A DNA stretch of 64,000 bases from Acidimicrobiia bacterium (GTDB lineage: Bacteria; Actinomycetota; Acidimicrobiia; Spongiisociales; ZC4RG35). The position numbers and the translations under genes are program-made. Positions 10,503 to 53,069 of the stretch are shown in pieces. The notes beneath the pieces were generated by a model. That model saw only the letters and a program-made list of their open reading frames with translations, did no database searches and was not told where the DNA came from. Location: assembly GCA_965203555.1 (NCBI GenBank), contig CBDBCY010000004.1, positions 2,240,001 through 2,304,000 of the forward strand, read 5' to 3'. The first letter of the stretch is position 1. Every line of letters begins with the position of its first letter.

Positions 10503-10629
10503 GGAACAGCGCGCACCCTCCCGTGTGGCGATCGTCGAGCAACCGGCGCATTTCCCTCTTGAAAGCCTTTTGGTTTCCGGTCGACCGATCGGAGCAACCG
10601 GCAAACCTACAATTCGATTCGAGCGCATC

Positions 10630-19251: not shown

Positions 19252-20742
19252 ATGTCTTGGCGCAGGCTCTGGGTCCGCAGGTTGCTTACCTTGATGACGC
19301 TGGGGTGGGTTCTGTGGATGCTGTGGCTGATCTTTGACGACGACCAGCCCTTCGTTCTCTATGTACTGGACCGCGACGGCCTGGGATTGGGGGATGTCAC
19401 CGTACTCCGTGACGGGGAGGTGGTGAAAGTCACCGACCTTGAGGGATCGGTTGAGCTCGATTGGGCGCCGCACGGGCGGCGGTATGTGCTGGTGTCCCCC
19501 GGCCACCTACCGAAAACGGTTACGGTGGCCGGCCCGCCCCAGGACTCGATGGTGGTCCATCTCCGACCGAGAACGCTGCGGGGCAGGGTGACGGACTCGA
19601 ATCTGGTTCCGGTGGAGGGAGCTCTGGTCAGCGCCGGATCGACCAGGACTTTCACGGACGCGGACGGTTATTTCTTGTTGGAGAAGGTGGAGGAGGGTGA
19701 GGTGGAAGTGACCCGTCCGGCTTGGATCCCCACCTCCTACCAATGGGACGGGGGTCCCGGTGACGCACAGTTGACAATCGAACCCCTGGTAATCAGAGCG
19801 GCTCATGTTTCGGGAGAAGTTGCCGGAGACCGGCTGAAGTGGGACGCGATGGTCAGGTTGGTGCAAGATTCGGAACTGAACGGTGTGATGCTGGACATCA
19901 AGGACGAAACGGGACAGGTCTTTTATAACTCTCAAGTGGAATTGGTCCGGCAGGTGAGGGCCGTGAATCCTCAATACGACCTGGCCGGGCTTGCGGATCA
20001 ACTGGAACGGTTGGACATCTATTTGATCGGGAGAATCGTGGCTTTCCAAGACCCCATCGCCAGCATCAGAGCGCCCACCAGCGCAGTGTGGGACTCATAC
20101 CTGGGGCAGCCGTACCGACAGGGTGATCAGTATTTTTTGGATCCCACAGATTCTCAAGCTCGCGCCTATGCCTTGGCCTTGGCTGTGGAGGTGTGTGAAC
20201 TGGGGGTGGATGAGATCCAGTTCGACTACATTCGCTTCCCCGACTCCCGGCGGCCATCCGCCACTTTCGATGGACCGATCGACCCCGATTCCCGGGTGGA
20301 GACCATCACTTCCTTCCTGGAGGAGGCCCGCGCCCTGCTCTGGCCGATGGGTTGTGCAGTGGCGGCCGACATCTTCGGGTTCCTGACTACCGTGCCCGAT
20401 GACGGCGGAATCGGGCAACAGTGGGAGAGAATCACCGAGGTGTTGGATGTCGTGTCTCCCATGTTGTACCCCAGCCACTACGACGATGGGTGGTATGGAT
20501 TCGACCGGCCCAATGATCATCCGGGCGGTGTGGTGAAGTCCGCCCTCGAGGACGCGGTGGCGAGGATGCACACCGCAGTGGTCATCCGTCCCTGGCTCCA
20601 GGACTTCGGTCATCGGGACGACCAGGTTCGGTCTTCGATCAACGCGGCGGAGGATTTCGATCTCGGCTGGATGCTGTGGAATCCGGTCAGCGAGGTGTCG
20701 GTGGGAGCGCTCAAGTCCAATAGTGAAGAGACCGGCGGCTGA
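19252..20742 (+). CDS. Membrane-anchored putative glycoside hydrolase (DUF4015-like) with carboxypeptidase-regulatory-like domains
   Basis: N-terminal TM, GRVTDSNLVPVEGA, DIKDETG, GRIVAFQD, DEIQFDYIRFP, SPMLYPSHY, RPWLQDF. Confidence 0.85.
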   Translation: MSWRRLWVRRLLTLMTLGWVLWMLWLIFDDDQPFVLYVLDRDGLGLGDVTVLRDGEVVKVTDLEGSVELDWAPHGRRYVLVSPGHLPKTVTVAGPPQDSMVVHLRPRTLRGRVTDSNLVPVEGALVSAGSTRTFTDADGYFLLEKVEEGEVEVTRPAWIPTSYQWDGGPGDAQLTIEPLVIRAAHVSGEVAGDRLKWDAMVRLVQDSELNGVMLDIKDETGQVFYNSQVELVRQVRAVNPQYDLAGLADQLERLDIYLIGRIVAFQDPIASIRAPTSAVWDSYLGQPYRQGDQYFLDPTDSQARAYALALAVEVCELGVDEIQFDYIRFPDSRRPSATFDGPIDPDSRVETITSFLEEARALLWPMGCAVAADIFGFLTTVPDDGGIGQQWERITEVLDVVSPMLYPSHYDDGWYGFDRPNDHPGGVVKSALEDAVARMHTAVVIRPWLQDFGHRDDQVRSSINAAEDFDLGWMLWNPVSEVSVGALKSNSEETGG

Positions 20743-20800
20743 GTACCGTCCCGCCTGTTCTGGTGGGGATAGCCCTGATCTCAGGTTGACTTGGCGGCGA

Positions 20801-21769
20801 TCACTCGCCGAATTCGGGTAGCACCCACTCGGCCAACCATTCCAACTGTTGCATGTAGCCGCTGAATCCCAGTCGGACATCGAGGATTACCATCTCAAGG
20901 CCCAACTCAGCGAAGGTTTCGATGGAGCGCAAACAGTCGGACCGGTCTCCCGCCACCAACAGTCCATCCAGGTCGTCGACAGTGTCGAACCCCCCCGAGG
21001 CAGGAGTCACCCAATGTCGGGCGCCCGCCGAACTGACACCCAGAGCCTTGATGTCTATGGAGTCCCTGGCCCGGCGCCGATCCGGGTCAGCCAGCACCAG
21101 AGGGATGGTTCCCAGCAGGATCTGCTTTTGCTGTTCTTCGCACAGTCGGTCAATGTATGCGAGTCGATCTTTCAAGGTGTCGATGGGAATCCGACCCGGA
21201 ATCCATCCGTCCGTGAGGGTGACCGCTCGTCGCGCGGCTGCGCGGGTGCTGCCCCCGTAAAGAAAGGGGATGGGCGCCAAGGGCTTGGGTCTGAGGGTGA
21301 AGTCCTGGAACTGGAAGATCTCTCCTTTATAGGAGACGTTGTCTTCTTGCCAGACCCGCCGACAGATATCCAGAGTTTCGCCGAGAATGGGGATACGACG
21401 ATCCTTGTCGAGCCCCGCGGCCGCGAATTCGGCCTCGTTGCTGCCAAGTCCCATCCCGGCCATAACCCGTCCGTTGGAGAGAAAACTGAGTGTTGCCAGG
21501 TTCTGGGCTAGTTTCAGGGGCCAGCGGATCGGAATCAGCACCGCGGTTCCCAGCATCATCCGGGCGGTGACCGAGGAAAGGGCCGCCAAAGTCAAAAGCG
21601 GCTCCAAGAAGGTCCGGTCTTCTCCTTCCATTTCGTGAGGCTTCCACACCAGGTGATCGCGAACCCACAGCGAATGAAAACCCATCTGTTCTATTACTGG
21701 TGCGTTGTCAATCAGCGTTTCCCTGGATGTCCACTGGCCGAAGTGCGGCGCCAGCACACCGAATTTCAT
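20801..21769 (-). CDS. LLM-class (luciferase-like) flavin/F420-dependent oxidoreductase
   Basis: GFHSLWVRDH, EPLLTLAALSSVT, LGTAVL, SNGRV, YGGS. Confidence 0.9.
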   Translation of the reverse strand: MKFGVLAPHFGQWTSRETLIDNAPVIEQMGFHSLWVRDHLVWKPHEMEGEDRTFLEPLLTLAALSSVTARMMLGTAVLIPIRWPLKLAQNLATLSFLSNGRVMAGMGLGSNEAEFAAAGLDKDRRIPILGETLDICRRVWQEDNVSYKGEIFQFQDFTLRPKPLAPIPFLYGGSTRAAARRAVTLTDGWIPGRIPIDTLKDRLAYIDRLCEEQQKQILLGTIPLVLADPDRRRARDSIDIKALGVSSAGARHWVTPASGGFDTVDDLDGLLVAGDRSDCLRSIETFAELGLEMVILDVRLGFSGYMQQLEWLAEWVLPEFGE

Positions 21770-21829
21770 TAGCTCTCTCCTCGATATTCCCAGGCCCTCA
21801 GATCGAGGGGTCGTCCACTAATGAATCGG

Positions 21830-23266
21830 TCAAGACCGAGGCTGTAGGTAGAGGCCCGGGTGCATATCGGCAGGTCGGTCGGTGGCCGGTTTCTGGGGGA
21901 CCCCGGCGATGTACCGACCGTATCCAGGCTCTGCGGTTACCTCGCCGTCCCGGAAGATGACCGCTCCACGCAACATGGTCATCACGGGCTTGCCTATAAA
22001 GTCGCGCCCGTGGTATGGAGTCCAGTTGCTCTTGCACTCCATCTGCCCGTCTTGAGGCTGGTAGGCCAGATCGGGATCGACGATGACCAGATCGGCGTCC
22101 GATCCGGGTTGCAGCGCCCCCTTCCGTGGATAGAGGCCCAGGATCCGGGCGGGCGCCTCGGTCAGGGCGTGCACCAGCCGACTCAGACGAAGGTTTCCGG
22201 CCTGTACGTCCGACAGCATCAAAGAGAACAGGTGCTCGTAGTGCGGTGATCCGAACGGCCCGATCAACGGATCCTCCTCCATGAGGGTTAGGTCTTCCAG
22301 CAGGTGCGGAGCGTGATCAGAGTCGATGATGTCGATGACGCCGCTGTCCAGCGCTTCCCAGATGGCGGCCATCCGATCGGGGTCGGTGGTGACGGCGCCC
22401 CCCGGAATGGCCCGGGCCCCCTGGCGCTGGATGTCTTCTTCCCGCAGGTGGAAGTACTTGGGGTCGGTGGCGACCGTGACAGGAACCCCGTCGGCCTTGG
22501 CCTGGGCAAGGAGGCGCAGGCTGCCGGGAGCATGGGTGTGGACCACCTGCATCCGCATGCCGGTTTCTCTTTGCACCTCCAGCAGGATTGCCACCGCCAG
22601 CCGCCAAACGACGTCCCGGGTATAGACATCGCTGAAAGTAAAGATGTCTCCCGGTTTGCCTTTGGCAACTTCCCGGTGATAGAGGCTCTCGAAGAGGGTC
22701 TGGGCGAAGGGATGCACCACGCACAGCAAACCCGTCTCCGCAATGGCCTCAAAGGTCTCCAGCAATCGGGCGGGGTCGGCGATTGCAAGCCGCGGATCGT
22801 GAGGGTATCCGCCAGTGACCTGGAAGAACTTGAAGCCGGTCGCTCCTGCCTTGGCCATTTTGGGGATCTCTTCCAACTGGGTCGGGCCGACGAAGTGACC
22901 CCAGTCGACTACGCACAATTCGTCGGCCACCGCCCGCTTCTCTTCGAACAGTTCCACGGTCACGGTGGGGGGTTCAACATTGGGCATATCCACAAAGGTG
23001 GTGTAGCCTCCGGCCGCCGCCGCCCGAGAGGCGGTGAGAAAGTCCTCTTTCTGCTCGTACCCGGGAGAGCGGGTATGGGCGTGAAGATCGATGAGCCCGG
23101 GGAGTACCCACTTTCCTTGCGCGTCCATCTCCCGGTCAGCCGAGACAGGACTGGAAGGATCCAATAACGCGGCGACCTTTTCTCCTGAAATCAGCAGGTC
23201 GGCCTTCATTCCTCCAGAAGACGTCTGGATCGTCCCGCCCCTGATTCTGGTGGTTGTTTCGGTCAT
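21830..23266 (-). CDS. Cyclic amidohydrolase (dihydroorotase/allantoinase/hydantoinase family)
   Basis: PGLIDLHAH, AAAAGGYTT, DMPN, FKFF, SDHAPH, KGALQPGSDADLVIVD. Confidence 0.9.
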   Translation of the reverse strand: MTETTTRIRGGTIQTSSGGMKADLLISGEKVAALLDPSSPVSADREMDAQGKWVLPGLIDLHAHTRSPGYEQKEDFLTASRAAAAGGYTTFVDMPNVEPPTVTVELFEEKRAVADELCVVDWGHFVGPTQLEEIPKMAKAGATGFKFFQVTGGYPHDPRLAIADPARLLETFEAIAETGLLCVVHPFAQTLFESLYHREVAKGKPGDIFTFSDVYTRDVVWRLAVAILLEVQRETGMRMQVVHTHAPGSLRLLAQAKADGVPVTVATDPKYFHLREEDIQRQGARAIPGGAVTTDPDRMAAIWEALDSGVIDIIDSDHAPHLLEDLTLMEEDPLIGPFGSPHYEHLFSLMLSDVQAGNLRLSRLVHALTEAPARILGLYPRKGALQPGSDADLVIVDPDLAYQPQDGQMECKSNWTPYHGRDFIGKPVMTMLRGAVIFRDGEVTAEPGYGRYIAGVPQKPATDRPADMHPGLYLQPRS

Positions 23267-23434
23267 CTGCGCTGCTGTCCTTTCTTGTGCGGAATGCCGA
23301 CGGGTGGGATTCCCGCAAGTGTTACACGCAAAGCTCTACCTGCTCAAACGTCTCGAAGGGTAACTATCAGCGTCCTTCTTTGTCAATACCCTCGTATCAA
23401 GCCAGTGTGACCTACCGTTGCAATCGTACCGGTA

Positions 23435-24655
23435 TCACTCCCGGCGGAGCGGCGGCAACTGACCGATGATTCCTGCCAGGAGGGCGGCGCGGGAGACGAG
23501 ACTGTCAAGTTGGATATATTCGTTGCGGGTCATCAGGTCGCCGCCCACCGGGCCCAGCCCATCCAAGGTGGCGGCTGACGGGCTACGAAAGGAGACGCTG
23601 CCCGCTGCCGCCGACTCGAAGGCATCGATTCGGATAGACAGGTCCCTTCCCACCCGTTCCGCAATGGAAAGCAGCAGTTCGGTACCGTGGTCTGGCCGGA
23701 CCCCCGGTCGATGATTGTGGGCTAGCAGTTCCACCGTGACTCCGCAGTCCTGTTCCACGGTCCGGGCAAGGGAGCGCATGCGGGAGGTCACAGCCTCCCA
23801 ATATTCGGGACCGCGAGTCCGGATGTCCACCACTGCCGAGGCGTGAGCGGGGGTAATGCTGCGCCGTCGACCTGCCTTGGCCATTGTCACCGTGATGTAG
23901 GTGCCTTCCTCCTCATTGGTGAGACGATTGAATCCGATGACCAGTCTTGCCAGGCCGTCGAGGGCGTTGCGGCCCTGGGCGTGGGCGGACCCGGTGTGCG
24001 ATTCCCGTCCTCTCAGGATCAGTCTGCCCACGCCGATGTGTCCGCGCCCGGACATGAGCTTGCCGCCCTGGCGGGCACACTCCAGACCCAGGCACCAGTC
24101 CGCTCCCACTCCCGCCTTTTCGACGGTCTGGCGGGACCCGAGACTGCCGGCTTGTTCATCTCCGGATAGGACAACGGCGACATCGGGTAGACCTACCTCC
24201 AGGTGGCGCAGGGCCTGCAAGGCGGCGACCATCACCACCAGCCCTCCCTTCATGTCCGCCACCCCCGGGCCGAACACCTTTCCACCCTCGATTCGAAAGC
24301 CGCCGCCGGTCGGACTACCGGGCGGGAAGGCCGTGTCAAGATCTCCCAGCAGGAGAAGCCGGCCATGTTGCTCTCCCCTCCGAAATCCTGAGTGGGTGGC
24401 CCCCAATTGGCTGTATGGGATACTGGGCGACATCAGCTCCGCCAGCCAATCGAGGGACTCGGGAAGGGGACGCTGAGCAACCTCCGTGAAACAGAACCCG
24501 AGGGGGCTCAATTGCTCGATAACCAAAGAGGCGACTCTGGCTACCCCGGCGGGTTGAGCGGCGTGACTCTCGGTGACAACCAACTGCCCGAGCAATTCCA
24601 CCAATGCGGTCTGGCGCTTCTCCAGCCAGGCTTGGGCCAACGGTCCTATCTTCAT
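23435..24655 (-). CDS. M20 family (carboxypeptidase G2-like) protein with substituted metal ligands
   Basis: GPGVADMKGG, GRESHTG, DGLGPVG. Has GDLDT, DEQ and LMT in place of HLDT, DEE and H. Confidence 0.82.
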   Translation of the reverse strand: MKIGPLAQAWLEKRQTALVELLGQLVVTESHAAQPAGVARVASLVIEQLSPLGFCFTEVAQRPLPESLDWLAELMSPSIPYSQLGATHSGFRRGEQHGRLLLLGDLDTAFPPGSPTGGGFRIEGGKVFGPGVADMKGGLVVMVAALQALRHLEVGLPDVAVVLSGDEQAGSLGSRQTVEKAGVGADWCLGLECARQGGKLMSGRGHIGVGRLILRGRESHTGSAHAQGRNALDGLARLVIGFNRLTNEEEGTYITVTMAKAGRRRSITPAHASAVVDIRTRGPEYWEAVTSRMRSLARTVEQDCGVTVELLAHNHRPGVRPDHGTELLLSIAERVGRDLSIRIDAFESAAAGSVSFRSPSAATLDGLGPVGGDLMTRNEYIQLDSLVSRAALLAGIIGQLPPLRRE

Positions 24656-24721
24656 TCCTGCCCAGATTACGTGAGGTGCCCGAATGTAGAATCCGCTCGG
24701 ACATCAAACAGGAGTGGCTGA

Positions 24722-25747
24722 ATGGCAAAAGCGACAGAGTTCGGAGTCCGGCTTCCGGTGGCAGGACCCTTGGCGAATACCGCGGACATCCGACGGTCGG
24801 CCGTGCGTTGCGAGGAGTTGGGCTACGACGCGGTTTGGGTGCACGACTTTTTGGCTTGGACCACCTTTCAGGATCGCTACCACGTCTCTTGCGGTTCCCG
24901 CGAGGCAGTGGAAGCTGCTGACTCTCCTCCCGTTTTTTTCGAATCGCTGACCAACATGGCTTTCTTGGCGGGGGTCACCAATCGGATCCGCATCGGAGTA
25001 GCGGTCCTGTGTCTTCCCTACCGGAATCCCCTGGTAGCGGCTAAGCAAGTTGCCAACATCGACCAACTGAGCAACGGTCGCGTGATTTTTGGGATCGGCA
25101 CCGGAGCCCCCAAGAGCACCCACAATGTCGATTTTGAGGTGCTGGGAATTCCCCGTAAGACGAAATATCACGTTACGAGGGACTACCTGCGGGCTATGAA
25201 GACCATCTGGACCGAGGACTATCCCTCTTACCAGGGTGAGTACTTCAGTTTTCCCGAGACCGAGATCTGGCCGAAGCCGGCGCAAAAGCCTTACCCTCCG
25301 ATCTGGACCGGTGGCCACGGACCCACCGCCATGGACATAACCGCCGAGTTTTCGACCGGGTGGATCCCGCCCTGGATCCCACCTGATGAGTACCCGGGTC
25401 GTATTCGAAACCTGGACAGGCTTGCTGTTGAGAAGGGGCGGGGAGGAACCGAATTCGATATCGCTACCGAAGTGTATGTTTCCCTGGCCGAAACCAGACA
25501 GGAGGCGGTCTCCAGCGCCCAGAAGACCCTCGGGGTCCTGACCGAAGGGTTTGATCACACGGCCACCCAAGAGGCCATCCAAGCAGCGGGATTGATCGGA
25601 AGCGCCGACGACGTTGGCGAGAAGATCGGTCGTTACGTGGAAGCAGGCGTCAACCACTACGAGATGAAGTTCGTCTATCACACGGTTGATCATCTGCTTG
25701 AACAACTCGAACACTTTGCTGCGGCGGTGGCGCCTGCCTTCCGCTAG
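24722..25747 (+). CDS. LLM-class probable F420-dependent oxidoreductase
   Basis: EELGYDAVWVHD, LAGVTNRIRIG, RNPLVAAKQVANIDQLSNGR, PKPAQKPYPPIWTGG. Confidence 0.9.
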   Translation: MAKATEFGVRLPVAGPLANTADIRRSAVRCEELGYDAVWVHDFLAWTTFQDRYHVSCGSREAVEAADSPPVFFESLTNMAFLAGVTNRIRIGVAVLCLPYRNPLVAAKQVANIDQLSNGRVIFGIGTGAPKSTHNVDFEVLGIPRKTKYHVTRDYLRAMKTIWTEDYPSYQGEYFSFPETEIWPKPAQKPYPPIWTGGHGPTAMDITAEFSTGWIPPWIPPDEYPGRIRNLDRLAVEKGRGGTEFDIATEVYVSLAETRQEAVSSAQKTLGVLTEGFDHTATQEAIQAAGLIGSADDVGEKIGRYVEAGVNHYEMKFVYHTVDHLLEQLEHFAAAVAPAFR

Positions 25748-25795
25748 CCGGGGAGGCGATACCTGGCGGCATAACCCGGAAAGAATGCCTTACTC

Positions 25796-26689
25796 ATGAA
25801 GACGTTGAGCTTTCCTTCCCCTGCCGGAGTTACCCTGGCGGCGGACCTGTATCTTCCCTCCGGAGACCCGCCTCCCAGTGGGCATCCGGTGGTGGTGGTG
25901 TGTCTGGGATGGGGGAGCGTCAAGGAACTGATGCCCCAGTGGGGGGATGCTCTATCTTGTGCGGGCTTGGCGGTGTTGATCCCTGACTACCGGGGATTCG
26001 GCGCCAGCGGTGGGGAACGGGGCCGCTGCTTTCCTGACGAGCACGTTGACGACATCCGGGCGGTGATGGGCTATGTGGAGAGAAGGTCTGACCTGGACAC
26101 CGGACGACTGGCATTGCTGGGGGTGAGTTACGGCGGGGCCGTGGCGGTGGCGGCAGGGGTTGACAGTCGCTGTCGGACCGTCATCTCGGTGGTGGGTTAT
26201 GGAAGTGGGGAACGTCACCTTGCGGCGGTGCGGACACCGGAGCAATGGAAAGTCTTTAGCGGCCGGCTGGCAGAGGACCGCCGCCGTAGATGCGACGGAA
26301 TCCCCAGTGAGATGGTGGACCCTGATGAGATACTGCTCCGGGACCGAGAAGCCCGAGAGTGGCGACAGCGGGTGGAGCGACAGTACCCCCACATGGCGTT
26401 TGTCACCACCCTGGAGTCGGCCGAGAAGATAGTAGCCTTCAGTCCCGAGCTAACCCTGCCTTACGAGCCGTCCAAGCCTGTCATGTTTATCCATGCCGGA
26501 GGAGATGCGATGATTCCAGTGGAAGAATCACGACGTATGTGGCAGAGATCGAGAGAACCCAAGCGATTGGTGATTATCCCTGGCATCGGTCACCATGAAG
26601 TACATCATGGTGACGCCTTTCGGCAGGTCATTACCGAGGTGAGCGACTGGTTGGAACGCTACCTGACCGCAGGTTCCGATGGCTGTTAG
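25796..26689 (+). CDS. Alpha/beta hydrolase
   Basis: DYRGFGASGG, GVSYGG nucleophile elbow, D (GDAMIP), H (IGHHE). Confidence 0.88.
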   Translation: MKTLSFPSPAGVTLAADLYLPSGDPPPSGHPVVVVCLGWGSVKELMPQWGDALSCAGLAVLIPDYRGFGASGGERGRCFPDEHVDDIRAVMGYVERRSDLDTGRLALLGVSYGGAVAVAAGVDSRCRTVISVVGYGSGERHLAAVRTPEQWKVFSGRLAEDRRRRCDGIPSEMVDPDEILLRDREAREWRQRVERQYPHMAFVTTLESAEKIVAFSPELTLPYEPSKPVMFIHAGGDAMIPVEESRRMWQRSREPKRLVIIPGIGHHEVHHGDAFRQVITEVSDWLERYLTAGSDGC

Positions 26690-27644
26690 GTTCGCGACTC
26701 GTTTCGGGCTTGTGCTCCCCCATTTCGGCGCCGATCCGCAGGTATCCGAGATGCTGGAGGTGGCGCAGTTGGCAGAGGAGGCTGGATTCGACTCCCTGTG
26801 GGTACGGGACCGCTTGGCGGCGGGGGCCCCGCACGGATTGCTGCTTGAGGCGGGCGGCACTACTTTTTTCGAGCCCCTCCTGAGCCTGGCCGCGGTGGCC
26901 GCGGTAACCCGACGGATCACTTTGGGTACGGCGGTGTTACTGCCCAACCGCCATCCCCTGCGTGTGGTGCAGGAGGTTGGGACCCTCTGGCGCCTGGCCG
27001 AGGGCCGGTTGGCGATTGGACTGGGGCTAGGCGTGGGGCCGAAGAACTTTCAATCGCTGGGGTTGAGCTATGGGAGCAGAGTGGAATTGTTCGAAGAGAC
27101 AGTGAAGGCTTTGCGGGACGCCACTTCGGCCAGTGCCGAGGTGGAGATCGATCCGGTGCCTGGCGAGCAACTGATGCTCTACTACGGGGGTGTAAGTCGA
27201 GCGGCGGTGCGCCGGGCCTTCGAGCACACCGACGGATGGATAGCCGGACGTCTTCCTCGCGATACGTTTTTGGCGCGTATGGAATTGGCCGGTCGTTACC
27301 GCGCCAAGACGGGGCGCCGTCTGGATGTCGCCAGCATGCCTATCACTCTGGTCGACTCGGGAGATGGGAGGCATCTGGATGCCGCCCGGGCGGCTGTCAG
27401 CATGCTGGCCCGCAGTGCCGAGGGCGCCACCGATTGGATCAAGCCGCCTTCGGGTCGGTTCGAAACCGTCGAGGATCTGGCCGGTCTGCTGATCACCGGC
27501 TCTCCGGCGCAATGCGCGGAACAGACAGCCGAGATGCTCAAGTCCGGCGTGAAACATCTGATCTTTGATCTTCGACTTGTGTTCGCTGACTGCCACCGAC
27601 AGGTAACCATGTTGGCGGAGGAAGTGCTCCCGGCGCTTCGTTGA
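26679..27644 (+). CDS. LLM-class oxidoreductase, paralog of 20801-21769
   Basis: AEEAGFDSLWVRDR, EPLLSLAAVAAVT, LGTAVL, YGG, DGWIAGR. Confidence 0.85.
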   Translation: MAVRFATRFGLVLPHFGADPQVSEMLEVAQLAEEAGFDSLWVRDRLAAGAPHGLLLEAGGTTFFEPLLSLAAVAAVTRRITLGTAVLLPNRHPLRVVQEVGTLWRLAEGRLAIGLGLGVGPKNFQSLGLSYGSRVELFEETVKALRDATSASAEVEIDPVPGEQLMLYYGGVSRAAVRRAFEHTDGWIAGRLPRDTFLARMELAGRYRAKTGRRLDVASMPITLVDSGDGRHLDAARAAVSMLARSAEGATDWIKPPSGRFETVEDLAGLLITGSPAQCAEQTAEMLKSGVKHLIFDLRLVFADCHRQVTMLAEEVLPALR

Positions 27645-27785
27645 CGACATCTATAACTGCAAGGATTGACTCCCTGTTTTTGAGGCCCGCTGTGAGATCA
27701 GGTGCTAGGGTTGCCGAAAAGATGCCGGCGAATGGCGAAAGCTGGATCCGGTCGGTAATAACTATTTATGCGGAAAGGTTTCTAT

Positions 27786-28913
27786 ATGAATCGTCTAAGG
27801 ACACTTCTTGCGGCGTTGGCAGTCCTGGCACTGATCGCGGCCGCTTGCGCAGACCCCTCCACTGACGAAGCAGCAGATGACGGAGGGGTGGATCAAGTCT
27901 TCTTCATTCTCGACTGGGTACCCAAGGGCCAGACGTCTCCCTTCTACGTGGCATTGGACAAGGGATTTTGGGCCGAGCGCAACATTGCGGTGCAGATCAC
28001 CCGTGGCTACGGGTCCGGTGACACCTCTGCCCGTATCGGACTGGGCGAGGGTGACTTCGGGTTTGCCGGAGTTGGCGCAGTGATGCGTACCATCAGTGAA
28101 GGGTTGCCGTTGGTTGAGATCGCAGCCATCGCCTCCACCGCCCCCACCGCGGTGTATGCGGGGCCTGACGCTGGAGTGAGTGGTGACGACCCCTCCAGCT
28201 TGGTGGGTCTGCGGGGCGCGGTTGACGCTGGTGATGAGAATGACCAGTTGTTCAAGGCCTTTGCCGGCTCGGTGGGGATCAGCTACGACGACATCGATTG
28301 GCAGTACGTAGACGGCGCCGGAATCGGCTCCATAGCCACCGGACAGGCCGACTTCGTCATGGACTGGATCACCAACCTGCCCGAGTGGTGGCTGGCCGAT
28401 CCGCCGATCGAGCCCGACACTTACTGGGTGGGCCGCGCCGTGGACATCTACGGCAACGGTCTCATCACCCGTCCCGAGATGCTGGAAAGCAATCGTGATC
28501 TTGTCAGGCGGTTCATCGAGGGCGCTCTGGCCGGGTACGAGTACGTGATCGAAGGCGGCGTAAGCGCTCACAACGAGTCCATCGACGCTCTCTTCAAGTA
28601 CAACCCTGAGTTGGAGGAGCAGCCCAATGCCCGTGAGTTCCACCTCGGTAACCTGCAGTTGTTCCTCACGCTGATGCTCACCGAGGATGTTCGGGACGAC
28701 GGAATCGGCTACTTTGATCCGGACAAGAAGCAGCGAAGCCTCGACTTCATCAACGACTACCTGCTGGATGCGCCTTTGACCCTTGATCAGGCGTTTATCT
28801 CCGATCTGATCATCGACAGCGGTGACGTGCCTATCGACGACTTCGACGCGGCCCGCGACGCGCTCGCCACCGTGCTGGGCAGGTCTAATCCGCTCACCCC
28901 ATTCCTGGGCTGA
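27786..28913 (+). CDS. NMT1/THI5 (SsuA/TauA-type) ABC substrate-binding lipoprotein
   Basis: Lipobox IAAAC, LDWVPKG, FYVALDKG, GYGSGD, YGNGL. GAAAGG RBS before ATG 27786. Confidence 0.88.
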   Translation: MNRLRTLLAALAVLALIAAACADPSTDEAADDGGVDQVFFILDWVPKGQTSPFYVALDKGFWAERNIAVQITRGYGSGDTSARIGLGEGDFGFAGVGAVMRTISEGLPLVEIAAIASTAPTAVYAGPDAGVSGDDPSSLVGLRGAVDAGDENDQLFKAFAGSVGISYDDIDWQYVDGAGIGSIATGQADFVMDWITNLPEWWLADPPIEPDTYWVGRAVDIYGNGLITRPEMLESNRDLVRRFIEGALAGYEYVIEGGVSAHNESIDALFKYNPELEEQPNAREFHLGNLQLFLTLMLTEDVRDDGIGYFDPDKKQRSLDFINDYLLDAPLTLDQAFISDLIIDSGDVPIDDFDAARDALATVLGRSNPLTPFLG

Positions 28914-28931
28914 GCGAGGTTCATTAGGTAA

Positions 28932-28973
28932 AGGTTGTCCGGAACCTGCTTGGTAGTGGGTTCCGGACAACCT
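28932..28973 (+). terminator. Strong intergenic stem-loop (mRNA stabiliser or partial terminator)
   Basis: AGGTTGTCCGGAACC (28932-28946) pairs perfectly with GGTTCCGGACAACCT (28959-28973), between the binding-protein and ATPase genes. Confidence 0.75.
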
Positions 28974-28995
28974 CCCTTGTAAGAAATACTCTCGG

Positions 28996-29796
28996 ATGGG
29001 TATAGAACTCCAGGATCTGGGTAAGGTTTTCCAAACCACCGATCTCACAGTGGAGGCTCTGCGGGACATCTCTGTAACGGTCTCCGACAGCGAATTCGTA
29101 AGCATCATCGGACCTAGCGGATGTGGTAAGAGCACCTTGTTGCGCTTGGTCTCAGGTCTGATTCCGCCGACCCAAGGTACGGTGTCCATTGATGGTGTTC
29201 CGGTTCAGGGTCCCGCGGGAAACATCGGTTTCGTCTTCCAGGCCCCCACCTTGCTGAAGTGGCGCACCGTGTTCAAGAACGTGATGTTCCCCTACGAGGT
29301 GCTGGCTTCCCAGAAGCGAGCGATCATGTCTCGCCAGGAGTACGAGAACCGGGCCGAACTGTTGCTGAAAATGGTCGGGATCGAGGACTTCCGCGACGCC
29401 TATCCCAAGCAACTCTCCGGCGGGATGCAGCAGCGGGTGTCCATTTGCCGGGCGCTTCTCCATGACCCGACCCTCCTTTTGATGGATGAACCGTTCGGCG
29501 CATTGGACGAGTTCACGCGGGAGCGTATGAACGAAGAGTTGATGCGTATCTGGAGGGAGACCCAGAAGACCGTGCTGTTCGTGACCCACCACATTCCGGA
29601 GGCGGTGTTTCTATCGGATCGGATCCTGGTGCTTTCGGCCCGCCCTGGCACCATTCTTGGAGAGATTGTTGTGGATCTTCCCCGCCCACGCATCGCTGAG
29701 ATGCGCGACAGCGTTGCATTCCTGGAGCAGGTGGTGATCACCCGCCGGATGATCGGCACAGCCGATGGAGGTGAGAACTCCAAGGGGTCCTTGTGA
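28996..29796 (+). CDS. ABC transporter ATP-binding protein (SsuB/TauB type)
   Basis: GPSGCGKST, LSGGMQQR, LLMDEPFGALD, FVTH. Confidence 0.95.
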   Translation: MGIELQDLGKVFQTTDLTVEALRDISVTVSDSEFVSIIGPSGCGKSTLLRLVSGLIPPTQGTVSIDGVPVQGPAGNIGFVFQAPTLLKWRTVFKNVMFPYEVLASQKRAIMSRQEYENRAELLLKMVGIEDFRDAYPKQLSGGMQQRVSICRALLHDPTLLLMDEPFGALDEFTRERMNEELMRIWRETQKTVLFVTHHIPEAVFLSDRILVLSARPGTILGEIVVDLPRPRIAEMRDSVAFLEQVVITRRMIGTADGGENSKGSL

Positions 29797-30599
29797 GTTC
29801 CCGAGTGAGCGAGACGGCTGCCGAAGCGGTAGCCCCTGTTCTGGGCAGCAAGACGGGGCGTATCCGTCGGTTCCTCGATCCCATTGTCTTTGCCCTTTTC
29901 TTCATAGCAGCTTGGCAGGCATTCATCTGGATCACCGGGTTCCATTCGGTTGTACTGCCGCCGCCTTCGAAAGTATGGGGGGTGCTATGGAACCAGGGAG
30001 ATTTCTTGGTTGGCAACATGCTCACCACCGCGGTAACCATCGGCTGGGGGTTCTTTCTGGGAGGGGTGATGGGGTTCGTGTCCGGGGTGCTGATCAACCA
30101 CTTTGAAGGGGTGAAAAGAGCGATCCACCCCATCCTGGTGTCCCTTTATGTGATCCCCAAGGCGGTGTTCATACCGCTTTTCATCCTTTGGTGGGGGGTG
30201 GGGTTCGAATACAAACTGGTGGTCACGGTCCTTCTTGCATTCTTCCCGGTGACCGAGAACACTATCACCGGACTGAACGGCGTGGAACTTGAAATGGTGG
30301 AACTCACCCGGTCACTGCGGGGTAGCAGGTGGTTTGGATTCCGGAAAGTCTCATTGCCGTTCGCCCTGCCTTTTGTGCTGGCCGGGCTGCGCATTGCGCT
30401 CACCGAGTCGTTCATCGGGGGAGTGCTGAGTGAGATACTGGTTCCGGGTAGCACTGGCATCGGTTCCCGGATCGTGGAGGCGGCTGCGTTTTCCAACACC
30501 GAGTTCATTATCGCCTCCATCATGGTGATCGCCGCCTTCGGGGTTGTCAGCTACTTTTCGTTTCTCTGGCTGGAGCGGAGGTTGACGTTTTGGGTGTAG
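29793..30599 (+). CDS. ABC transporter permease (SsuC/TauC type)
   Basis: VLPPPSKV, IPKAVFIPLF, EAA-like loop, ALPFVLAGLRIA. Confidence 0.92.
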   Translation: MSSRVSETAAEAVAPVLGSKTGRIRRFLDPIVFALFFIAAWQAFIWITGFHSVVLPPPSKVWGVLWNQGDFLVGNMLTTAVTIGWGFFLGGVMGFVSGVLINHFEGVKRAIHPILVSLYVIPKAVFIPLFILWWGVGFEYKLVVTVLLAFFPVTENTITGLNGVELEMVELTRSLRGSRWFGFRKVSLPFALPFVLAGLRIALTESFIGGVLSEILVPGSTGIGSRIVEAAAFSNTEFIIASIMVIAAFGVVSYFSFLWLERRLTFWV

Positions 30600-31405
30600 A
30601 AAACAACCTCGCCCCTGGCCGGTCGGCCTGGCGATTGGAGAGGGCCGGTCGGCGCCTCCTGTATCACTGGCCGTTGCTGGCGGTGCTGGTAGGGATCGTC
30701 GTTTTCTGGATCGTGATGATCGAATGGCGGGATTTCCATCCGATCGTGCTGCCCCCACCCGAATCGGTTGTTGAAGCGCTGATCGAGAACCGGGTCGAGT
30801 ACGTGGAGGCGGGGTTCGTCACTTTCTATGAGATGATTCTTGGTTTCATGGCCGGCGGAGCACTGGGGTTCTTCTCAGCGATCGGGATCTTTTATTCACC
30901 CTTCTTGCGGCGCTCCCTCTATCCGTTGTTGTTGGGGTTCCGAATCGTTCCCAAAGTGGCTTTCGTCCCGCTGTTCCTGGTCTGGTTCGGTATCGGTGTG
31001 GGCGTGAAGGTGGCCCTGGCCAGCTTCGCGATCTTCTTTCTCATCCTTATCCAGACCGGTCTGGGCCTGGCTGGCGTGGATCCGGCGCTGGTCGAGCTGG
31101 GCCGGTCGCTTAGGATGAGCGAGTTTGCCCTGTTGCGTCGGATCCGTTTACCGGCTGCCCTTCCTGCCATCATGGTGGGGGTGAAGCTGGGGATTACCTA
31201 CGCTCTCACCAACGTCGTGGTAGCCGAAATGGTGGTGGCTACCGAGGGACTGGGTTTTCTGGTGGTGGAGGCCCGGTCCTTTATCAAGACCCACGAGATG
31301 ATTGCCGCCATCTTCGTGGTTGCCTTTATCGGCCTCATAGTGTTCGCCGCTGGTTTGTGGGTGGAGCGCAAGACGGTCTTCTGGTACATGGAGGCTGACC
31401 AGTAG
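30590..31405 (+). CDS. ABC transporter permease (SsuC/TauC type), second subunit
   Basis: VLPPPESV, VPKVAFVPLF, ALPAIMVGVK, EGLG. Confidence 0.92.
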   Translation: MGVENNLAPGRSAWRLERAGRRLLYHWPLLAVLVGIVVFWIVMIEWRDFHPIVLPPPESVVEALIENRVEYVEAGFVTFYEMILGFMAGGALGFFSAIGIFYSPFLRRSLYPLLLGFRIVPKVAFVPLFLVWFGIGVGVKVALASFAIFFLILIQTGLGLAGVDPALVELGRSLRMSEFALLRRIRLPAALPAIMVGVKLGITYALTNVVVAEMVVATEGLGFLVVEARSFIKTHEMIAAIFVVAFIGLIVFAAGLWVERKTVFWYMEADQ

Positions 31406-31431
31406 GTAGAGGACCGCGTGGGCGGGCCGGT

Positions 31432-32568
31432 TTAGGACCGGGGTAGGGCCTTGATCGCCAAGGAGAGGGGCGCGGGACGGGTACAGGTGCTTTCCACGTC
31501 AACATGGGCGCCGGATTCCGCTGCCTCCGCAATGGACAGGGCGATGTCCAGCACATGGTAGGCGACTTCGGCTGCTACCCGATGGGGACGGTCGTCGATG
31601 ATCCCTCGGGCGAGGTCCTCTACCCCGATACCTCGCAGTCCGGGGATGGGCTCTGAGGACCGGAAAGTCGTCCAAGGCACGTTGCGTTCCAGATCGAGCA
31701 TGGCCTTCTCCTCCTCGCCGTACTGCCTTATTTGGGGGGTTCCCGACCACAGATCGGGATCGGTCGTGCTGAGGGTGCCCTTGGTCCCGTACACCTCTAT
31801 GAAAGGCAGCCGGGTGGCCTGGACGTCGAACGTGGCGAGTAGGGGTCCGCTGATGCCGGACTCGAACTCGAGGATCGAAGTGATGTAGGTGGGAGTTTCC
31901 ACTTTGATCCGGGCGCCGTACTGCTCCGGCGAGGTAATCATCCGCTCCCCGAAGGTGATCCGGGAAATGGCTGCCACCCTGGCCATGGGACCGAGAAGAT
32001 TGATGAGGGCGGTCAGGTAATAGGGACCCACATCCAGCATCGGGCCCCCCGCCGGTCCATAGAAGAACGCCGGGCTTGGGTGAAAATGCTCCACTCCGTT
32101 GGACAAGAAGAAAGTGCCCATCCCCACCGGGGACCCGATCCAGCCGTCGTCGAGCAGTTTGCGGGAAGTCTGGAGGCCGCTGCCCAGGAAGGTGTCCGGG
32201 GCGCATGCCAGCCTGACGTCATTGTGGGCAGCCAAGTCGAGAAGATGCCTCGCCTGTTCCCGAGTCGGCGCCAGGGGCTTCTCCGAGAACACATGCTTTC
32301 CCGCTTCCAGAGCAGTCTGGGAGATTCCATAGTGCACTAGGGGTGGGGTGATATTGAGAACGATTTCGACCAGTGGGTCGCTCAGCAATTCTTCCAAGGT
32401 CCGATAAATCCGCGGGACACCGAAAGCCGCTGCCCGTTGGCGGGATTGGTTCTGGTCGACGTCGAAGCATCCCACCACCTCGATGGACGGCAGTGTCTTG
32501 AATCCCTCCAGGTACTGGAGGCTGACATGGCCGCAGCCCACGATCCCAACCCCGACCCTGCGAATCAT
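31432..32568 (-). CDS. Gfo/Idh/MocA family NAD(P)-dependent oxidoreductase
   Basis: GIVGCG, AGKHVFSEKP, APDTFLG, GGPMLDVGPYY. Start at 32568 overlaps the upstream stop (ATGA). Confidence 0.9.
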   Translation of the reverse strand: MIRRVGVGIVGCGHVSLQYLEGFKTLPSIEVVGCFDVDQNQSRQRAAAFGVPRIYRTLEELLSDPLVEIVLNITPPLVHYGISQTALEAGKHVFSEKPLAPTREQARHLLDLAAHNDVRLACAPDTFLGSGLQTSRKLLDDGWIGSPVGMGTFFLSNGVEHFHPSPAFFYGPAGGPMLDVGPYYLTALINLLGPMARVAAISRITFGERMITSPEQYGARIKVETPTYITSILEFESGISGPLLATFDVQATRLPFIEVYGTKGTLSTTDPDLWSGTPQIRQYGEEEKAMLDLERNVPWTTFRSSEPIPGLRGIGVEDLARGIIDDRPHRVAAEVAYHVLDIALSIAEAAESGAHVDVESTCTRPAPLSLAIKALPRS

Positions 32569-34784
32569 CGACGGATCCCCTTTGCCCGGGCCAAGAAGTT
32601 GTCGAGGACATTGCGGGTGACCTTTGCCACATTGCTGTTGCCGTCCTGGGTGGCGAGGAACGGGATCCAGTTCATCGAACCAACGGAGAAGACGCATCCG
32701 CCCTTGGGCCGTTCGATCAGCACCATGTCGGCCCGCACATCCGGGTCTCGGGCCGAGCCGAAGAAGTTATTCGTTTGCATGATGTCCTCGATGGCGCGCT
32801 GGAACTGTCCGTGGCGGCCTGAAGAAGTGGCCAGCAATTTAGTCTGGATCGGGGTACCCAATGCATAGTCCATTCGGTCAATTTCATCGCCTGCCGCTCC
32901 CATCAATGCCCCGCCGAGTCCGCTGTCGAACCCACCGATTATCTCATCCTTCCCTATCCCTTCGAAGACGAAGGCGACGTTGTTGTCGAACGAGTCGGGA
33001 CATCGCCGATAGCCGGCGGAGGTGCCCCAACCCATGGCGGTGAATCCCACGCCCACCAGCCTTTGCGGAGCCGTGCCCCGGTGCCGCCAGAGTCCTCCGA
33101 CTCTGTCCTCGAAACTGAGCCATTCCTCCCCCACCTCCGACGTCCAGTCCCGTGATCCGGCAAAGCCGCGTCGCATTTCGATGACCCCCGGCATATCGGG
33201 ATGGGTGGCGGTTACCCAGAAGAGACCGTTTCCTCCCAGGTACATCAGGCGCCCCCCGCACTCCAGCCAGTCTTCCACTGCTGCCATCCAATTGGGAGAT
33301 ACGTATTCAGGGTGACTTCCGGTGATCACCACCGAGTAGGAGGAGAGTAGATCGACTCCGTATGTATCCAGGTCCTCATCGGTAATCACATCGAATCGGT
33401 GGCCCTCGGATCGCAGCCACCGGAGAAGAGTGATGTCGGTGGAGAAGTGGCGAGGACCTCTGGTCCCCCACCAGTGGTATTCCGATGCGAAGGTTACGAT
33501 GGGGCGGTTGCGGGTGGCGTAGCAGATGCCACTGGCATCAGCGTGCAGGTTGTAGACCGAGGCGCCCAGATCAGGGCGTTCGGCCAGAAAGCTGTCGAAG
33601 GGATTCGACTCGTCGTAGGGGTGCATACCCACATCGGCGTGTGCTTCCTCGATGGCCACCGAGTCGGGATTGGGGTCCGGCCGGAGGTTCCCGTAGGCCA
33701 GATATGTGAAGGTGGGCATCAATACGGCTATATCAGGCTTGTCAGTTCTGCTGTGGACAAAGAACGGCAGTTCTGCCGAAGTCCCCCTGCTTTCGATCTG
33801 CATGGCATAGGCGCCGGGTTCCAGGTCCCGGGGAAGAGCGACGACCGCCGATACGTCCCAGTTCTTATCACCCACGTCATCACTATGGAAGTGGATGGCG
33901 TTTCGATGCACCGCCTGCTCCGTTAGTGACTGACGCCAGCTCCAGGAGTGGCCTTTCATCCGCAGGGCGGGAAGGTTGACGGTCCGACCGTGGCGATCCC
34001 CCGGACCGCGGTCGGGTACCCGGGTGGTGGCCTGCATCCGGGCGAAATCCCAGCATCCGATCACAGCAGCGCCTGGGACGTTGGCATGGCGTCCGCCCTC
34101 GTCCGGGGATCCTTCCACCCAGGACCGGTAGATAGCAGGCTGTTCGATCTTGCCGTCGTAGCAGCGGTCTACGGAAAAAGTACCGGCCGTGTCCTGGCCT
34201 CCAACCGCAGCTATGGTGATAGGACCATCAATGACAAGCGGCGTATTCTCCGGGGCTTGGTGGACAACCGCGGTTTCTTCCGAAGACTGCCGGCCGAGTT
34301 CTTCGACCTCGATAGCCTGTCGCCCGGTGGCCGTGTCGAATCCGGCGAAGATCCGATACCAGATCCTTTCCGAAAGAGCTACTTCGGAAACGACTTTCCA
34401 TCGGCGCCGGGCCCAGGATAGGTTGAAACAGGGACGGCCGGCTACATCAAGCGCCAGGGTCACGCCCTCGTTGGTGTTTGAGTCCCGCCAGTTCACCAGT
34501 GTCTGCTCTTCGCCGCGCCGGGGAAGGGTGGGCCAAACCCAAAGCCGCACGCTCACCTGTGTCAGGTGTTCAGGACCGGCGGCGGGGACGAAAACCATGG
34601 ATCCGACGGGTGACGGCGGCTGGCTTCCCGGGATCTGATCCTGACCGATTGACGGTACTCCTTCTCCTGGTGAATCGAGGGATATCAGATTGAAGGAGAA
34701 CGGATGAGCCTCGGTGTCGAGATGCATGCGAACCTCGTCACCGGGCATGTAGGACCATTGGTCAAGATACCCGCAAACCGCCAC
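32565..34784 (-). CDS. N,N-dimethylformamidase large (beta) subunit family protein with LamG-like domain
   Basis: GYLDQWSY, AIHFHSDD, PTFTYLAYGN, SVYNLHAD, GSHPEY, LMYLGGNG, GGLWR, VGVGF, AAGDEID, VRADMV, TRNVL. Confidence 0.88.
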   Translation of the reverse strand: MAVCGYLDQWSYMPGDEVRMHLDTEAHPFSFNLISLDSPGEGVPSIGQDQIPGSQPPSPVGSMVFVPAAGPEHLTQVSVRLWVWPTLPRRGEEQTLVNWRDSNTNEGVTLALDVAGRPCFNLSWARRRWKVVSEVALSERIWYRIFAGFDTATGRQAIEVEELGRQSSEETAVVHQAPENTPLVIDGPITIAAVGGQDTAGTFSVDRCYDGKIEQPAIYRSWVEGSPDEGGRHANVPGAAVIGCWDFARMQATTRVPDRGPGDRHGRTVNLPALRMKGHSWSWRQSLTEQAVHRNAIHFHSDDVGDKNWDVSAVVALPRDLEPGAYAMQIESRGTSAELPFFVHSRTDKPDIAVLMPTFTYLAYGNLRPDPNPDSVAIEEAHADVGMHPYDESNPFDSFLAERPDLGASVYNLHADASGICYATRNRPIVTFASEYHWWGTRGPRHFSTDITLLRWLRSEGHRFDVITDEDLDTYGVDLLSSYSVVITGSHPEYVSPNWMAAVEDWLECGGRLMYLGGNGLFWVTATHPDMPGVIEMRRGFAGSRDWTSEVGEEWLSFEDRVGGLWRHRGTAPQRLVGVGFTAMGWGTSAGYRRCPDSFDNNVAFVFEGIGKDEIIGGFDSGLGGALMGAAGDEIDRMDYALGTPIQTKLLATSSGRHGQFQRAIEDIMQTNNFFGSARDPDVRADMVLIERPKGGCVFSVGSMNWIPFLATQDGNSNVAKVTRNVLDNFLARAKGIRR

Positions 34785-34845
34785 GGTCTTCTCTCCTTTC
34801 AGATCTGGTTCAACCGGCGGGCAAAGTGTTTACTTCCGGTCAGAA

Positions 34846-35856: not shown

Positions 35857-35863
35857 AGTTCCC

Positions 35864-36631: not shown

Positions 36632-36659
36632 CGTAAGCTATCCAGTCCTTTCGGGTTCT

Positions 36660-38753: not shown

Positions 38754-38948
38754 GGGCAATTCTCCATTCACTCGGCTCTTACAAGTTCGGCGCTTCGGAC
38801 TCCCGTTGAGCGGGAGGTTACATCACTAAAACTCCGGTGAGACTCTCAAACAGCCATTTGTTTGGTGATGGGTTTTGGCTTTCACAGGAGCATTTGACCC
38901 CATCGATCTAAGATAAGTTGTCTAATCATCGCATCTAGGTGGTGGCCT

Positions 38949-52984: not shown

Positions 52985-53069
52985 GCATAATTAGCAATAC
53001 CCGTTTCTTGTAAATGGCGGATTCCCGATAGCATTCGTGCTCGGAACTGCAGGAAAGATCCTTCAAATC

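Follow-up and report, generated by a model that had tools for sequence, protein, structure and literature searches.

The question raised by this locus was what is accomplished by ten adjacent genes at positions 20801-31405 of a 64,000-nucleotide stretch of an Acidimicrobiia bacterium (contig CBDBCY010000004.1, positions 2,240,001 to 2,304,000; the whole stretch is called the window here). The genes encode three luciferase-like (LLM) enzymes, a cyclic amidohydrolase (AMH), an M20-like protein, an alpha/beta-fold serine hydrolase (ABH), and an ATP-binding cassette (ABC) transporter with its substrate-binding protein. An earlier reading of the sequence, the original prediction, had proposed an uncharacterized route of N-heterocycle catabolism analogous to reductive pyrimidine breakdown. 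Our analysis leads us, with moderate confidence, to view this conserved cluster as an accessory catabolic or nitrogen-scavenging system for a small imported N-heterocycle, in which F420-type redox chemistry would be combined with dihydroorotase-like ring opening. The features of the cluster are as follows:

20801-21769, minus strand: LLM1, 322 aa; Pfam Bac_luciferase, 144 bits; TIGR03619 class; directly downstream of AMH
21830-23266, minus strand: AMH, cyclic amidohydrolase, 478 aa; Amidohydro_1, 80 bits
23435-24655, minus strand: M20-like protein, 406 aa; Peptidase_M20, 60.5 bits, and M20_dimer, 40 bits
24656-24721, no strand: divergent spacer of 66 bp between the M20 and LLM2 start codons, from reading of the sequence
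24722-25747, plus strand: LLM2, 341 aa; Bac_luciferase, 195.7 bits; TIGR03619 class
25796-26689, plus strand: ABH, alpha/beta-fold serine hydrolase, 297 aa; Hydrolase_4 and Abhydrolase families
26679-27644, plus strand: LLM3, 321 aa; Bac_luciferase, 137.5 bits
27768-28913, plus strand: NMT1/THI5-type substrate-binding lipoprotein, 381 aa; NMT1, 98.7 bits
28996-29796, plus strand: ABC ATPase of the nitrate/sulfonate/taurine-type group, 266 aa; ABC_tran, 122.6 bits
29793-30599, plus strand: ABC permease 1, 268 aa; BPD_transp_1, 70.2 bits
30590-31405, plus strand: ABC permease 2, 271 aa; BPD_transp_1, 78.1 bits

Open reading frame (ORF) positions and Pfam domains confirmed the gene content, coordinates, and strands of all ten genes as originally described. 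The statement that the cluster has no flavin reductase or regulator was also borne out, as no such domain was present in any of the ten proteins. Overlaps of 4-11 bases occurred at three gene pairs (ABH/LLM3, ATPase/permease 1, and permease 1/permease 2), which is compatible with co-translation. The sequence AGGAG lies 7 bases upstream of the LLM2 ATG, inside the 66-bp spacer. A consensus scan of positions 20000-32500 gave two promoter-like sites (3.0 expected) and seven terminator-like sites (10.1 expected); none was located at the operon ends, and no promoter site was found in the spacer.

Assignment of AMH was approached by comparing it with NCBIfam models and solved structures. It scored under every NCBIfam equivalog cut-off: 257.3 bits for allantoinase (AllB; cut-off 357.85), 249 bits for the dihydroorotase equivalog (cut-off 452), 236.8 bits for dihydropyrimidinase/D-hydantoinase TIGR02033 (cut-off 393.25), 230.3 bits (230.4 in the genome scan) for dihydroorotase TIGR00857 (pyrC; cut-off 279.05), and 227 bits for ErtD (cut-off 600). 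Its relatives bear merely the names 'dihydroorotase family protein' or 'amidohydrolase family protein'. The best solved relative was the L-hydantoinase 1GKR (244 bits), with the metal-binding His, Lys, His, His, and Asp aligned and retained. Over residues 40-130, the closest alignments were with dihydroorotases and a single allantoinase. Both HxHxR and MPN aligned with the corresponding motifs of dihydroorotases 3GRI, 3D6N, and 2GWN, with R66 falling on R65 of the Aquifex aeolicus enzyme (3D6N); this position is occupied by Asn in allantoinase 3HM7 and by Ile in hydantoinase 1GKR. The SDHAPH sequence of AMH resembles the TDHAPH of dihydroorotases. The three residues used here to recognize a dihydroorotase (Arg in HxHxR, Asn in MPN, and His in DHAPH) are therefore all present in AMH, and R66, N96, and H321 were invariant in 15 relatives, down to 56% identity. 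Besides the Arg, the Asn of MPN and the last His of DHAPH presumably contact the substrate carboxylate in dihydroorotase. The HxHxR Arg is described as essential for substrate binding in dihydroorotase (PMC12524618). Because AMH has these motifs, its ring substrate probably bears a carboxylate positioned as in dihydroorotate. Judged by its sequence, AMH is not a dihydropyrimidinase, but an enzyme with binuclear-metal ligands and dihydroorotase-type substrate motifs, and the original analogy with reductive pyrimidine catabolism is to that extent a loose one.

A housekeeping role for AMH in pyrimidine biosynthesis, either as the regular dihydroorotase or as a substitute for it, was considered and rejected, because the pyrimidine biosynthesis genes are present elsewhere in the genome: pyrD (C4:702253-703017) adjoins another dihydroorotase gene (C4:703358-704392), and pyrB is located at C4:2544535. 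The genome encodes 11 cyclic amidohydrolase paralogues, several of which cluster around C4:1.29-1.32 Mb. All three motifs were present in only three of the 11, namely AMH, a second LLM-linked protein (AMH2), and the housekeeping PyrC.

Alignment of AMH relatives gave 73 loci (L numbers below) from species-representative genomes, all of them metagenome-assembled genomes (MAGs), the nearest labelled Acidimicrobiia; layouts were derived by BLAST of the window proteins against the ORFs of these loci. The window-type layout, with ten genes in unchanged order and flanked likewise by DUF4015 and sufB, was present in four related MAG loci (L007-L010), and identities to the window in L007 ranged from 75% (ABH) up to 98% (binding protein). 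Locus L011 had nine of the ten genes, again with sufB as a neighbour; no full-length LLM1 was detected there by BLAST. Another contig of the same MAG (L013) carries a separate AMH and LLM1 pair (87% and 86% identity) with its own ABC transporter. A different order was found in L019 and L022, with AMH at 69%, M20 at 60-62%, LLM2 at 85-87%, and LLM1 at 55-58% identity; L019 further holds ABH (68%), LLM3 (68%), the binding protein (84%), and the ATPase (81%), where the locus ends. LLM2 was 85-94% identical throughout the related clusters L007-L011, L019, and L022. A third order was found in L021 (AMH 70%, M20 45%, LLM1 61%, LLM2 72%, ABH 44%, and transporter 58-68%); this order and the accessory genes of L021 rest on one genome (G007), flagged as unpublished. 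The genes thus co-occur elsewhere in three arrangements, as the prediction required, and because the set recurs in other genomes the grouping is more than chance.

Neighbour frequencies were determined for 69 of the 73 loci; the other four (L067, L068, L075, and L076) were excluded because no AMH ORF in them spanned half of the query or more:

LLM: within 5 kb of AMH in 48/69, anywhere in the locus in 51/69
ABC ATPase: within 5 kb in 33/69, anywhere in 41/69
Permease: within 5 kb in 30/69, anywhere in 38/69
Cupin_2 protein (not in the window): within 5 kb in 26/69, anywhere in 33/69
NMT1-type binding protein: within 5 kb in 21/69, anywhere in 26/69
M20: within 5 kb in 19/69, anywhere in 19/69
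ABH homologue: within 5 kb in 7/69, anywhere in 10/69

These values are lower bounds, because only 48 of the 69 loci had at least 1.5 kb on both sides of AMH. A same-strand LLM lay within 500 bases of AMH in 39/73 loci by the same BLAST-based method. Counts from single-linkage ORF clusters (LLM in 65/73 loci, adjacent in 59/73) were inflated by out-of-frame ORFs, and the BLAST-based counts were used instead. Judged from these layouts, AMH and an LLM (LLM1) make up the evolutionary core, usually with an NMT1-type ABC importer, and M20, LLM2, ABH, and LLM3 are additions of the window's lineage.

This pattern bears on the possibility that the ten genes form two unrelated neighbouring units, a conserved M20-AMH-LLM1 module and an LLM2-hydrolase-LLM3-ABC importer operon acting on a different compound. 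Beyond close kin only AMH and an LLM recur, with or without an ABC transporter; the ABH count is low, the window-type binding-protein cluster was present in 11/73 loci, and L012-L018 have AMH and LLM1 at 83-87% identity with the remaining cluster genes missing. We nevertheless think two separate units unlikely. Both halves travel together through the three gene orders, an ABC transporter and an NMT1-type binding protein often adjoin AMH in distant lineages too, and paralogues of the ABH, AMH, and LLM trio are found together a second time in this genome. This paralogous trio lies ~20 kb past the window (G000 C4:2316001-2332000, locus L080), in the same direction as its listed neighbours, and comprises an alpha/beta hydrolase (28% identical to ABH), AMH2 (37% to AMH), and an LLM (38%). 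Its neighbours encode a TctA-type carboxylate transporter, CoxG, the flavin adenine dinucleotide, 2Fe-2S, and molybdopterin subunits of a hydroxylase, and a GntR regulator. Molybdenum hydroxylases acting on N-heterocycles are well known, and finding the trio next to such an enzyme and a carboxylate transporter is evidence for a common chemistry directed at carboxylated N-heterocycles. The same locus contains an 891-aa ORF (L080:10362-13037) joining GPP34 (Golgi phosphoprotein 3-like) and cytochrome P450 domains.

Other versions of the cluster also carry genes for the Cupin_2 protein, an isochorismatase-family hydrolase (L019 and L021), and, in L021 only, an EamA exporter and an EutA/arylmalonate-decarboxylase-like protein. 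The loci bear the labels Acidimicrobiia, Chloroflexota/Limnocylindria, Dormibacterota, Deltaproteobacteria, Acidobacteria, Binatia, and Nitrososphaerota. L019 and L022 are labelled uncultured Gammaproteobacteria, with cluster proteins that reach 87% identity to those of the Acidimicrobiia-type cluster; this implies a wrong taxon label or transfer of the region. Within the order to which the window belongs, distribution was patchy: of 121 genomes sampled, 4 had an AMH with at least 69% identity, this one included, and 17 more had only relatives of 35-40%.

The suggested F420 link found support from model scores for two of the three LLMs: LLM1 (179.3 bits) and LLM2 (176.1 bits) passed the F420-class model TIGR03619 (cut-off 166.9), but LLM3, which is 37.6% identical to LLM1, failed at 123.6 bits. 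Among the 42 AMH-adjacent LLMs of other loci, 27 were tested after exclusion of near-identical sequences; TIGR03619 was the best family in 27/27 and was over its cut-off in 15/27, the lowest score being 151.2. The biosynthesis genes expected of an F420 producer were found in the genome scan: cofE (248.7 against a cut-off of 180.65), cofH (474.2 against 374.1), and cofD (271.5 against 257.45). An Fgd-family F420 dehydrogenase was also present (TIGR03557, 216.5 against 210.4). The true Fgd equivalog was not found in the genome (171 against 420). In L019 an Fgd-family gene (232.3 bits) lies inside the cluster. This 3.4-Mb genome (G000) gave 25 matches to an LLM-type model.

Co-occurrence was examined with CofD in the genomes behind 50 of the 73 loci. 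The 23 loci omitted (L009-L011, L013, L014, L016-L018, L025, L028, L047, L053-L056, L061, L064, L067, L069-L071, L074, and L076) were mostly near-duplicates, second loci of an included MAG, or short. CofD exceeded its cut-off in 40/50 AMH-carrying genomes, and four further genomes had copies cut off at contig ends. As background, 151 genomes were sampled from the phylum of one carrier, G028; CofD was over the cut-off in seven of these, and the AMH family (E <= 1e-100) was found in one, G028 itself, which is among the seven. On these model scores and gene distributions, the F420 link of the cluster holds.

The same enzymes could instead act with oxygen. In such a scheme (Rut-like or type II Baeyer-Villiger) the LLMs would be monooxygenases using reduced flavin mononucleotide (FMNH2), AMH, ABH, and M20 would hydrolyse the products, and the flavin reductase would be encoded elsewhere. 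The combination of an LLM-fold enzyme, which in Rut (RutA-RutG) acts on the pyrimidine ring, with an alpha/beta hydrolase echoes RutA and RutD, and the isochorismatase-family hydrolase of L019 and L021 belongs to the family of RutB. The best fold neighbours of LLM1 and the sequence neighbours of LLM2 include the FMN monooxygenases SfnG, RutA, and SsuD, and the genome carries two Flavin_Reduct genes. Both of these are outside the cluster, however, and at least one (C4:1761896-1762336) is located between two other LLM genes. The RutA equivalog scored only 32.8 (LLM1) and 45.4 (LLM2) against a cut-off of 498.3, and the isochorismatase of the related loci scored 58 against 378 for RutB. The window cluster has no isochorismatase, RutF reductase, RutC, or RutE, and a metal-dependent cyclic amidohydrolase, which Rut does not have, is central to it. 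Given also that LLM1 and LLM2 pass the F420-class model and that CofD accompanies AMH in most of the genomes searched, we regard oxygenolytic cleavage as an improbable alternative.

The M20-like protein had been compared with ureidopropionase, and this comparison did not survive: the protein is not of the AmaB type. Of the carbamoylase branch (AmaB, PydC, AllC), it matched only the NF006769 allantoate amidohydrolase model, at 25 bits against 452, and it scored 27.5 against 321 for YgeY. Its best model matches, both under the cut-off, were PRK06133 (188.9 against 349) and PRK07338 (188.4 against 357), which are named 'glutamate carboxypeptidase' or 'hydrolase', and its nearest solved relative was carboxypeptidase G2 (CPG2, 1CG2; 99 bits). 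We take E175 of CPG2 to be the general base. The zinc ligands of CPG2 are H112, D141, E176, E200, and H385 (PMC5082436, Table 1). Alignment with 1CG2 showed that the M20-like protein retains D141, E200, and the neighbouring E175, whereas H112 is replaced by D, E176 by Q, and H385 by L, so that it does not have the five zinc ligands of a dinuclear CPG2-type M20 enzyme. AbgA also has Asp at the H112 position (PMC5082436, Table 1). The same site pattern (GDLDT or ADLD, ADMKGG, DEQ, EC, and LMT/LLT) was present in the window protein and in 19/19 AMH-linked orthologues at 40-82% identity. Because the pattern is common to all 20 sequences compared, we conclude that the change was selected and is not decay. 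From these residues, one zinc site is gone and the other could still hold a metal; the protein is probably a one-metal hydrolase, the alternative being a non-catalytic role.

The remaining genes concern import and a further hydrolysis. The N-terminus of the binding protein ends in ...LIAAAC, a lipobox by reading of the sequence, and because the protein begins with this lipoprotein-type signal the transporter is taken to be an importer. No NCBIfam model matched the binding protein at 1e-5. It is weakly similar to 4NMY of the PDB (46.7 bits), to the pyrimidine-binding (formylaminopyrimidine) protein ThiY (3IX1, 39.8 bits), and to THI5, and its Protein Atlas neighbours were NMT1 clusters only, some auto-named thiamine pyrimidine synthase, which gave no hint of the ligand. 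These similarities would suit a salvage system: like ThiY, the NMT1 protein would bring in a product of thiamine-pyrimidine breakdown or another vitamin fragment, and the M20 protein would act as a deacylase, presumably like YlmB. The similarity of the binding protein is weak, though; salvage offers no role for three LLMs or a ring-opening AMH; the M20 metal site is atypical; and the patchy distribution within the order fits an accessory nutrient route. We consider salvage very unlikely.

Scavenging of sulfur from sulfonates (Ssu/Tau-like), with the LLMs as desulfonating monooxygenases, was named in the original prediction among the findings that would refute it. By model score, the transporter's ATPase and permeases come closest to TauB, SsuC, and Sao-type models, the best ATPase matches (SaoA, 223 against 360; TauB, 219 against 357) being under their cut-offs, and a second type of binding protein in other loci gave a weak SsuA_fam match (65.9 against 163.5). 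The window binding protein, on the other hand, matched no SsuA or TauA model, the window LLMs scored only 47.2 and 82.3 against 518.2 for SsuD (TIGR03565) and 68 and 84 against 383 for SfnG, and a cyclic amidohydrolase and an M20 protein have no place in desulfonation. Sulfonate scavenging accordingly fails as an explanation, and we find it scarcely credible. ABH has a GVSYG nucleophile motif, scored 145 against 400 for the UilS lactonase model, and matched PDB entry 7QJM at 169 bits; it is a candidate esterase, lactonase, or deformylase.

In membership tests the cluster did not qualify as a Pyd, Rut, Ssu, Hyu, or reductive uric acid system. By analogy, it is best described as a new variant that follows the logic of the reductive ring-cleavage pathways (Pyd and reductive uric acid). 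Pyd (PydA, the dihydropyrimidinase PydB, and the ureidopropionase PydC) likewise proceeds by ring reduction, opening by a cyclic amidohydrolase, and then decarbamoylation, and variants of its first step with other redox partners, such as a ferredoxin-dependent PydA, have been reported (PMC7332683). The cluster differs in having no PydA-type protein, the only DHO_dh domain of the genome being at the pyrimidine biosynthesis locus, and in an M20 protein that is CPG2-like and not of the AmaB/PydC type.

The nearest published precedent in the literature covered is the reductive uric acid pathway (XdhD, YgfK, SsnA, HyuA, YgeW, YgeY, and YgeX; Li et al. 2025, PMC12507026), with a reduction, two ring openings by cyclic amidohydrolases, and an M20 step, together with its predicted variant in Chloroflexota. 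In the clusters of that variant a putative F420 'luciferase family' reductase replaces YgfK; this is a prediction, and it concerns the SsnA and HyuA families (Li et al. 2025, PMC12507026). The window has one amidohydrolase, of another subfamily, in place of two, and its cluster has no Xdh, YgeW, or YgeX; the molybdenum hydroxylase accompanies the paralogous trio outside the window. SsnA was absent among the best 25 of 46 families matched, and AMH and the M20 protein fell short of the HyuA-type (TIGR02033) and YgeY models, as given above. Hydantoin utilization also pairs a ring-opening enzyme (L-hydantoinase) with an M20-family enzyme (carbamoylase), and AMH is nearest to 1GKR; but 1GKR has Ile in place of the HxHxR Arg, and the window has no racemase or AmaB-type carbamoylase. 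To our knowledge, LLMs play no part in Hyu systems.

The motifs of AMH invite comparison with dihydroorotase and dihydroorotate dehydrogenase, and with the orotate fermentation of Clostridium oroticum. AMH keeps the Arg, Asn, and His motifs with equal spacing, the LLM and AMH mirror PyrD and PyrC, and an M20 protein decarbamoylating an acidic amino acid would mirror ureidosuccinase. The differences are that the redox partner is an LLM and not a dihydroorotate dehydrogenase, that the cluster contains an importer, and that the housekeeping genes are elsewhere. A specific form of our proposal, which we put forward as doubtful, is that the AMH-LLM pair acts as an F420H2-dependent reductase of orotate (or an analogue) and a catabolic dihydroorotase, followed in this lineage by a one-metal M20 'ureidosuccinase', so that an orotate-like ring would yield aspartate, ammonia, and CO2. 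If true, this would be an F420-driven counterpart of the clostridial fermentation.

In the more general pathway that we favour, the NMT1-type lipoprotein and the ABC transporter would import the compound, most likely a carboxylate-bearing cyclic ureide or amide like dihydroorotate. The LLMs, using F420 and not FMN plus O2, would donate a hydride to, or abstract one from, the ring or a side chain; most likely F420H2 would reduce a conjugated ring to a hydrolysable one. The dihydroorotase-like AMH would then open the ring, the M20-like protein, probably with one metal, would strip the remaining N-carbamoyl or N-acyl group, and alongside it the serine hydrolase could remove a formyl or ester group, so that an amino acid, ammonia, and CO2 would result.

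Several observations weigh against this pathway. Only two of the five canonical metal ligands remain in the M20-like protein, which may lack hydrolase activity altogether. LLM3 and 12/27 partner LLMs score under the TIGR03619 cut-off, and the TIGR03619 model was itself built from co-occurrence with F420 genes. The fold neighbours of LLM1 (AlphaFold model, mean predicted local distance difference test score, pLDDT, 91.3) mix F420 Mer, which was first (2.6e-21), with the FMN monooxygenases SfnG (6.1e-21), RutA, and SsuD at near-equal scores. Fno (TIGR01915) was not found in the genome, which is 95% complete. The co-occurrence of F420 and AMH is partly phylogenetic, because most AMH-carrying phyla make F420 anyway. 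LLM2, ABH, and LLM3 accompany the core in close kin only, as the ABH count within 5 kb (7/69) illustrates. Finally, the taxon labels of MAGs are unreliable: the PEP carboxylase of the 'Gammaproteobacteria' locus L019 is 57% identical to that of this genome.

For most bacterial F420-dependent LLMs the substrate is not known; gene order in these loci links an entire subfamily with a single partner enzyme, and the active-site residues of that partner confine the likely chemistry to cyclic ureides or amides bearing a carboxylate. Many annotations of the type 'LLM class F420-dependent oxidoreductase' and 'dihydroorotase family protein' could in this way be turned into a testable pathway. The doubtful orotate route, if true, would be spread over F420-makers labelled Actinomycetota, Chloroflexota, Dormibacterota, Binatia, and Deltaproteobacteria, and would reach soil ammonia-oxidizing archaea, for which it is a possible ammonia supply. 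Confirmation of the more general pathway would give F420 a new physiological role in the turnover of nutrient nitrogen and carbon, both in bacteria of sea and soil and in ammonia-oxidizing archaea, provide an M20 subfamily working with a reduced metal site, and offer an experimentally tractable case of replacement by F420, which Li et al. 2025 (PMC12507026) only predicted. In the literature covered, which did not extend to subscription journals, no description of the AMH-LLM module was found, and no functional study of Rv2161c/TIGR03619 was evident by title among the matches listed. Within the same coverage, the portions of papers available included none joining F420, luciferase-like enzymes, and dihydropyrimidinase, and none on F420 and hydantoinase that dealt with such a cluster; F420 was not found in the pyrimidine-catabolism papers among the matches listed.

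The surroundings of the cluster were also recorded. Immediately after it, five genes on the minus strand (window 31432-38771) apparently form a separate uptake and catabolic unit, encoding a GFO/IDH/MocA oxidoreductase, a 739-aa DMFA2_C protein (N,N-dimethylformamidase-beta-like), a BPD_transp_2 permease, an ABC ATPase, and a 703-aa protein with a periplasmic-binding domain. The suf iron-sulfur assembly genes are split, with sufB at 17503-18918 and the rest ~34 kb further on (sufD, 53037-54332; a Rieske protein, 54332-54661; and a sufC-like ABC ATPase, 54661-55464). The whole catabolic region falls between these two parts, and no clear G+C shift was seen. At 10435-11471 of the window, an NTP_transf_2 nucleotidyltransferase gene adjoins a HEPN-domain gene, which is the usual small toxin-antitoxin-like layout.

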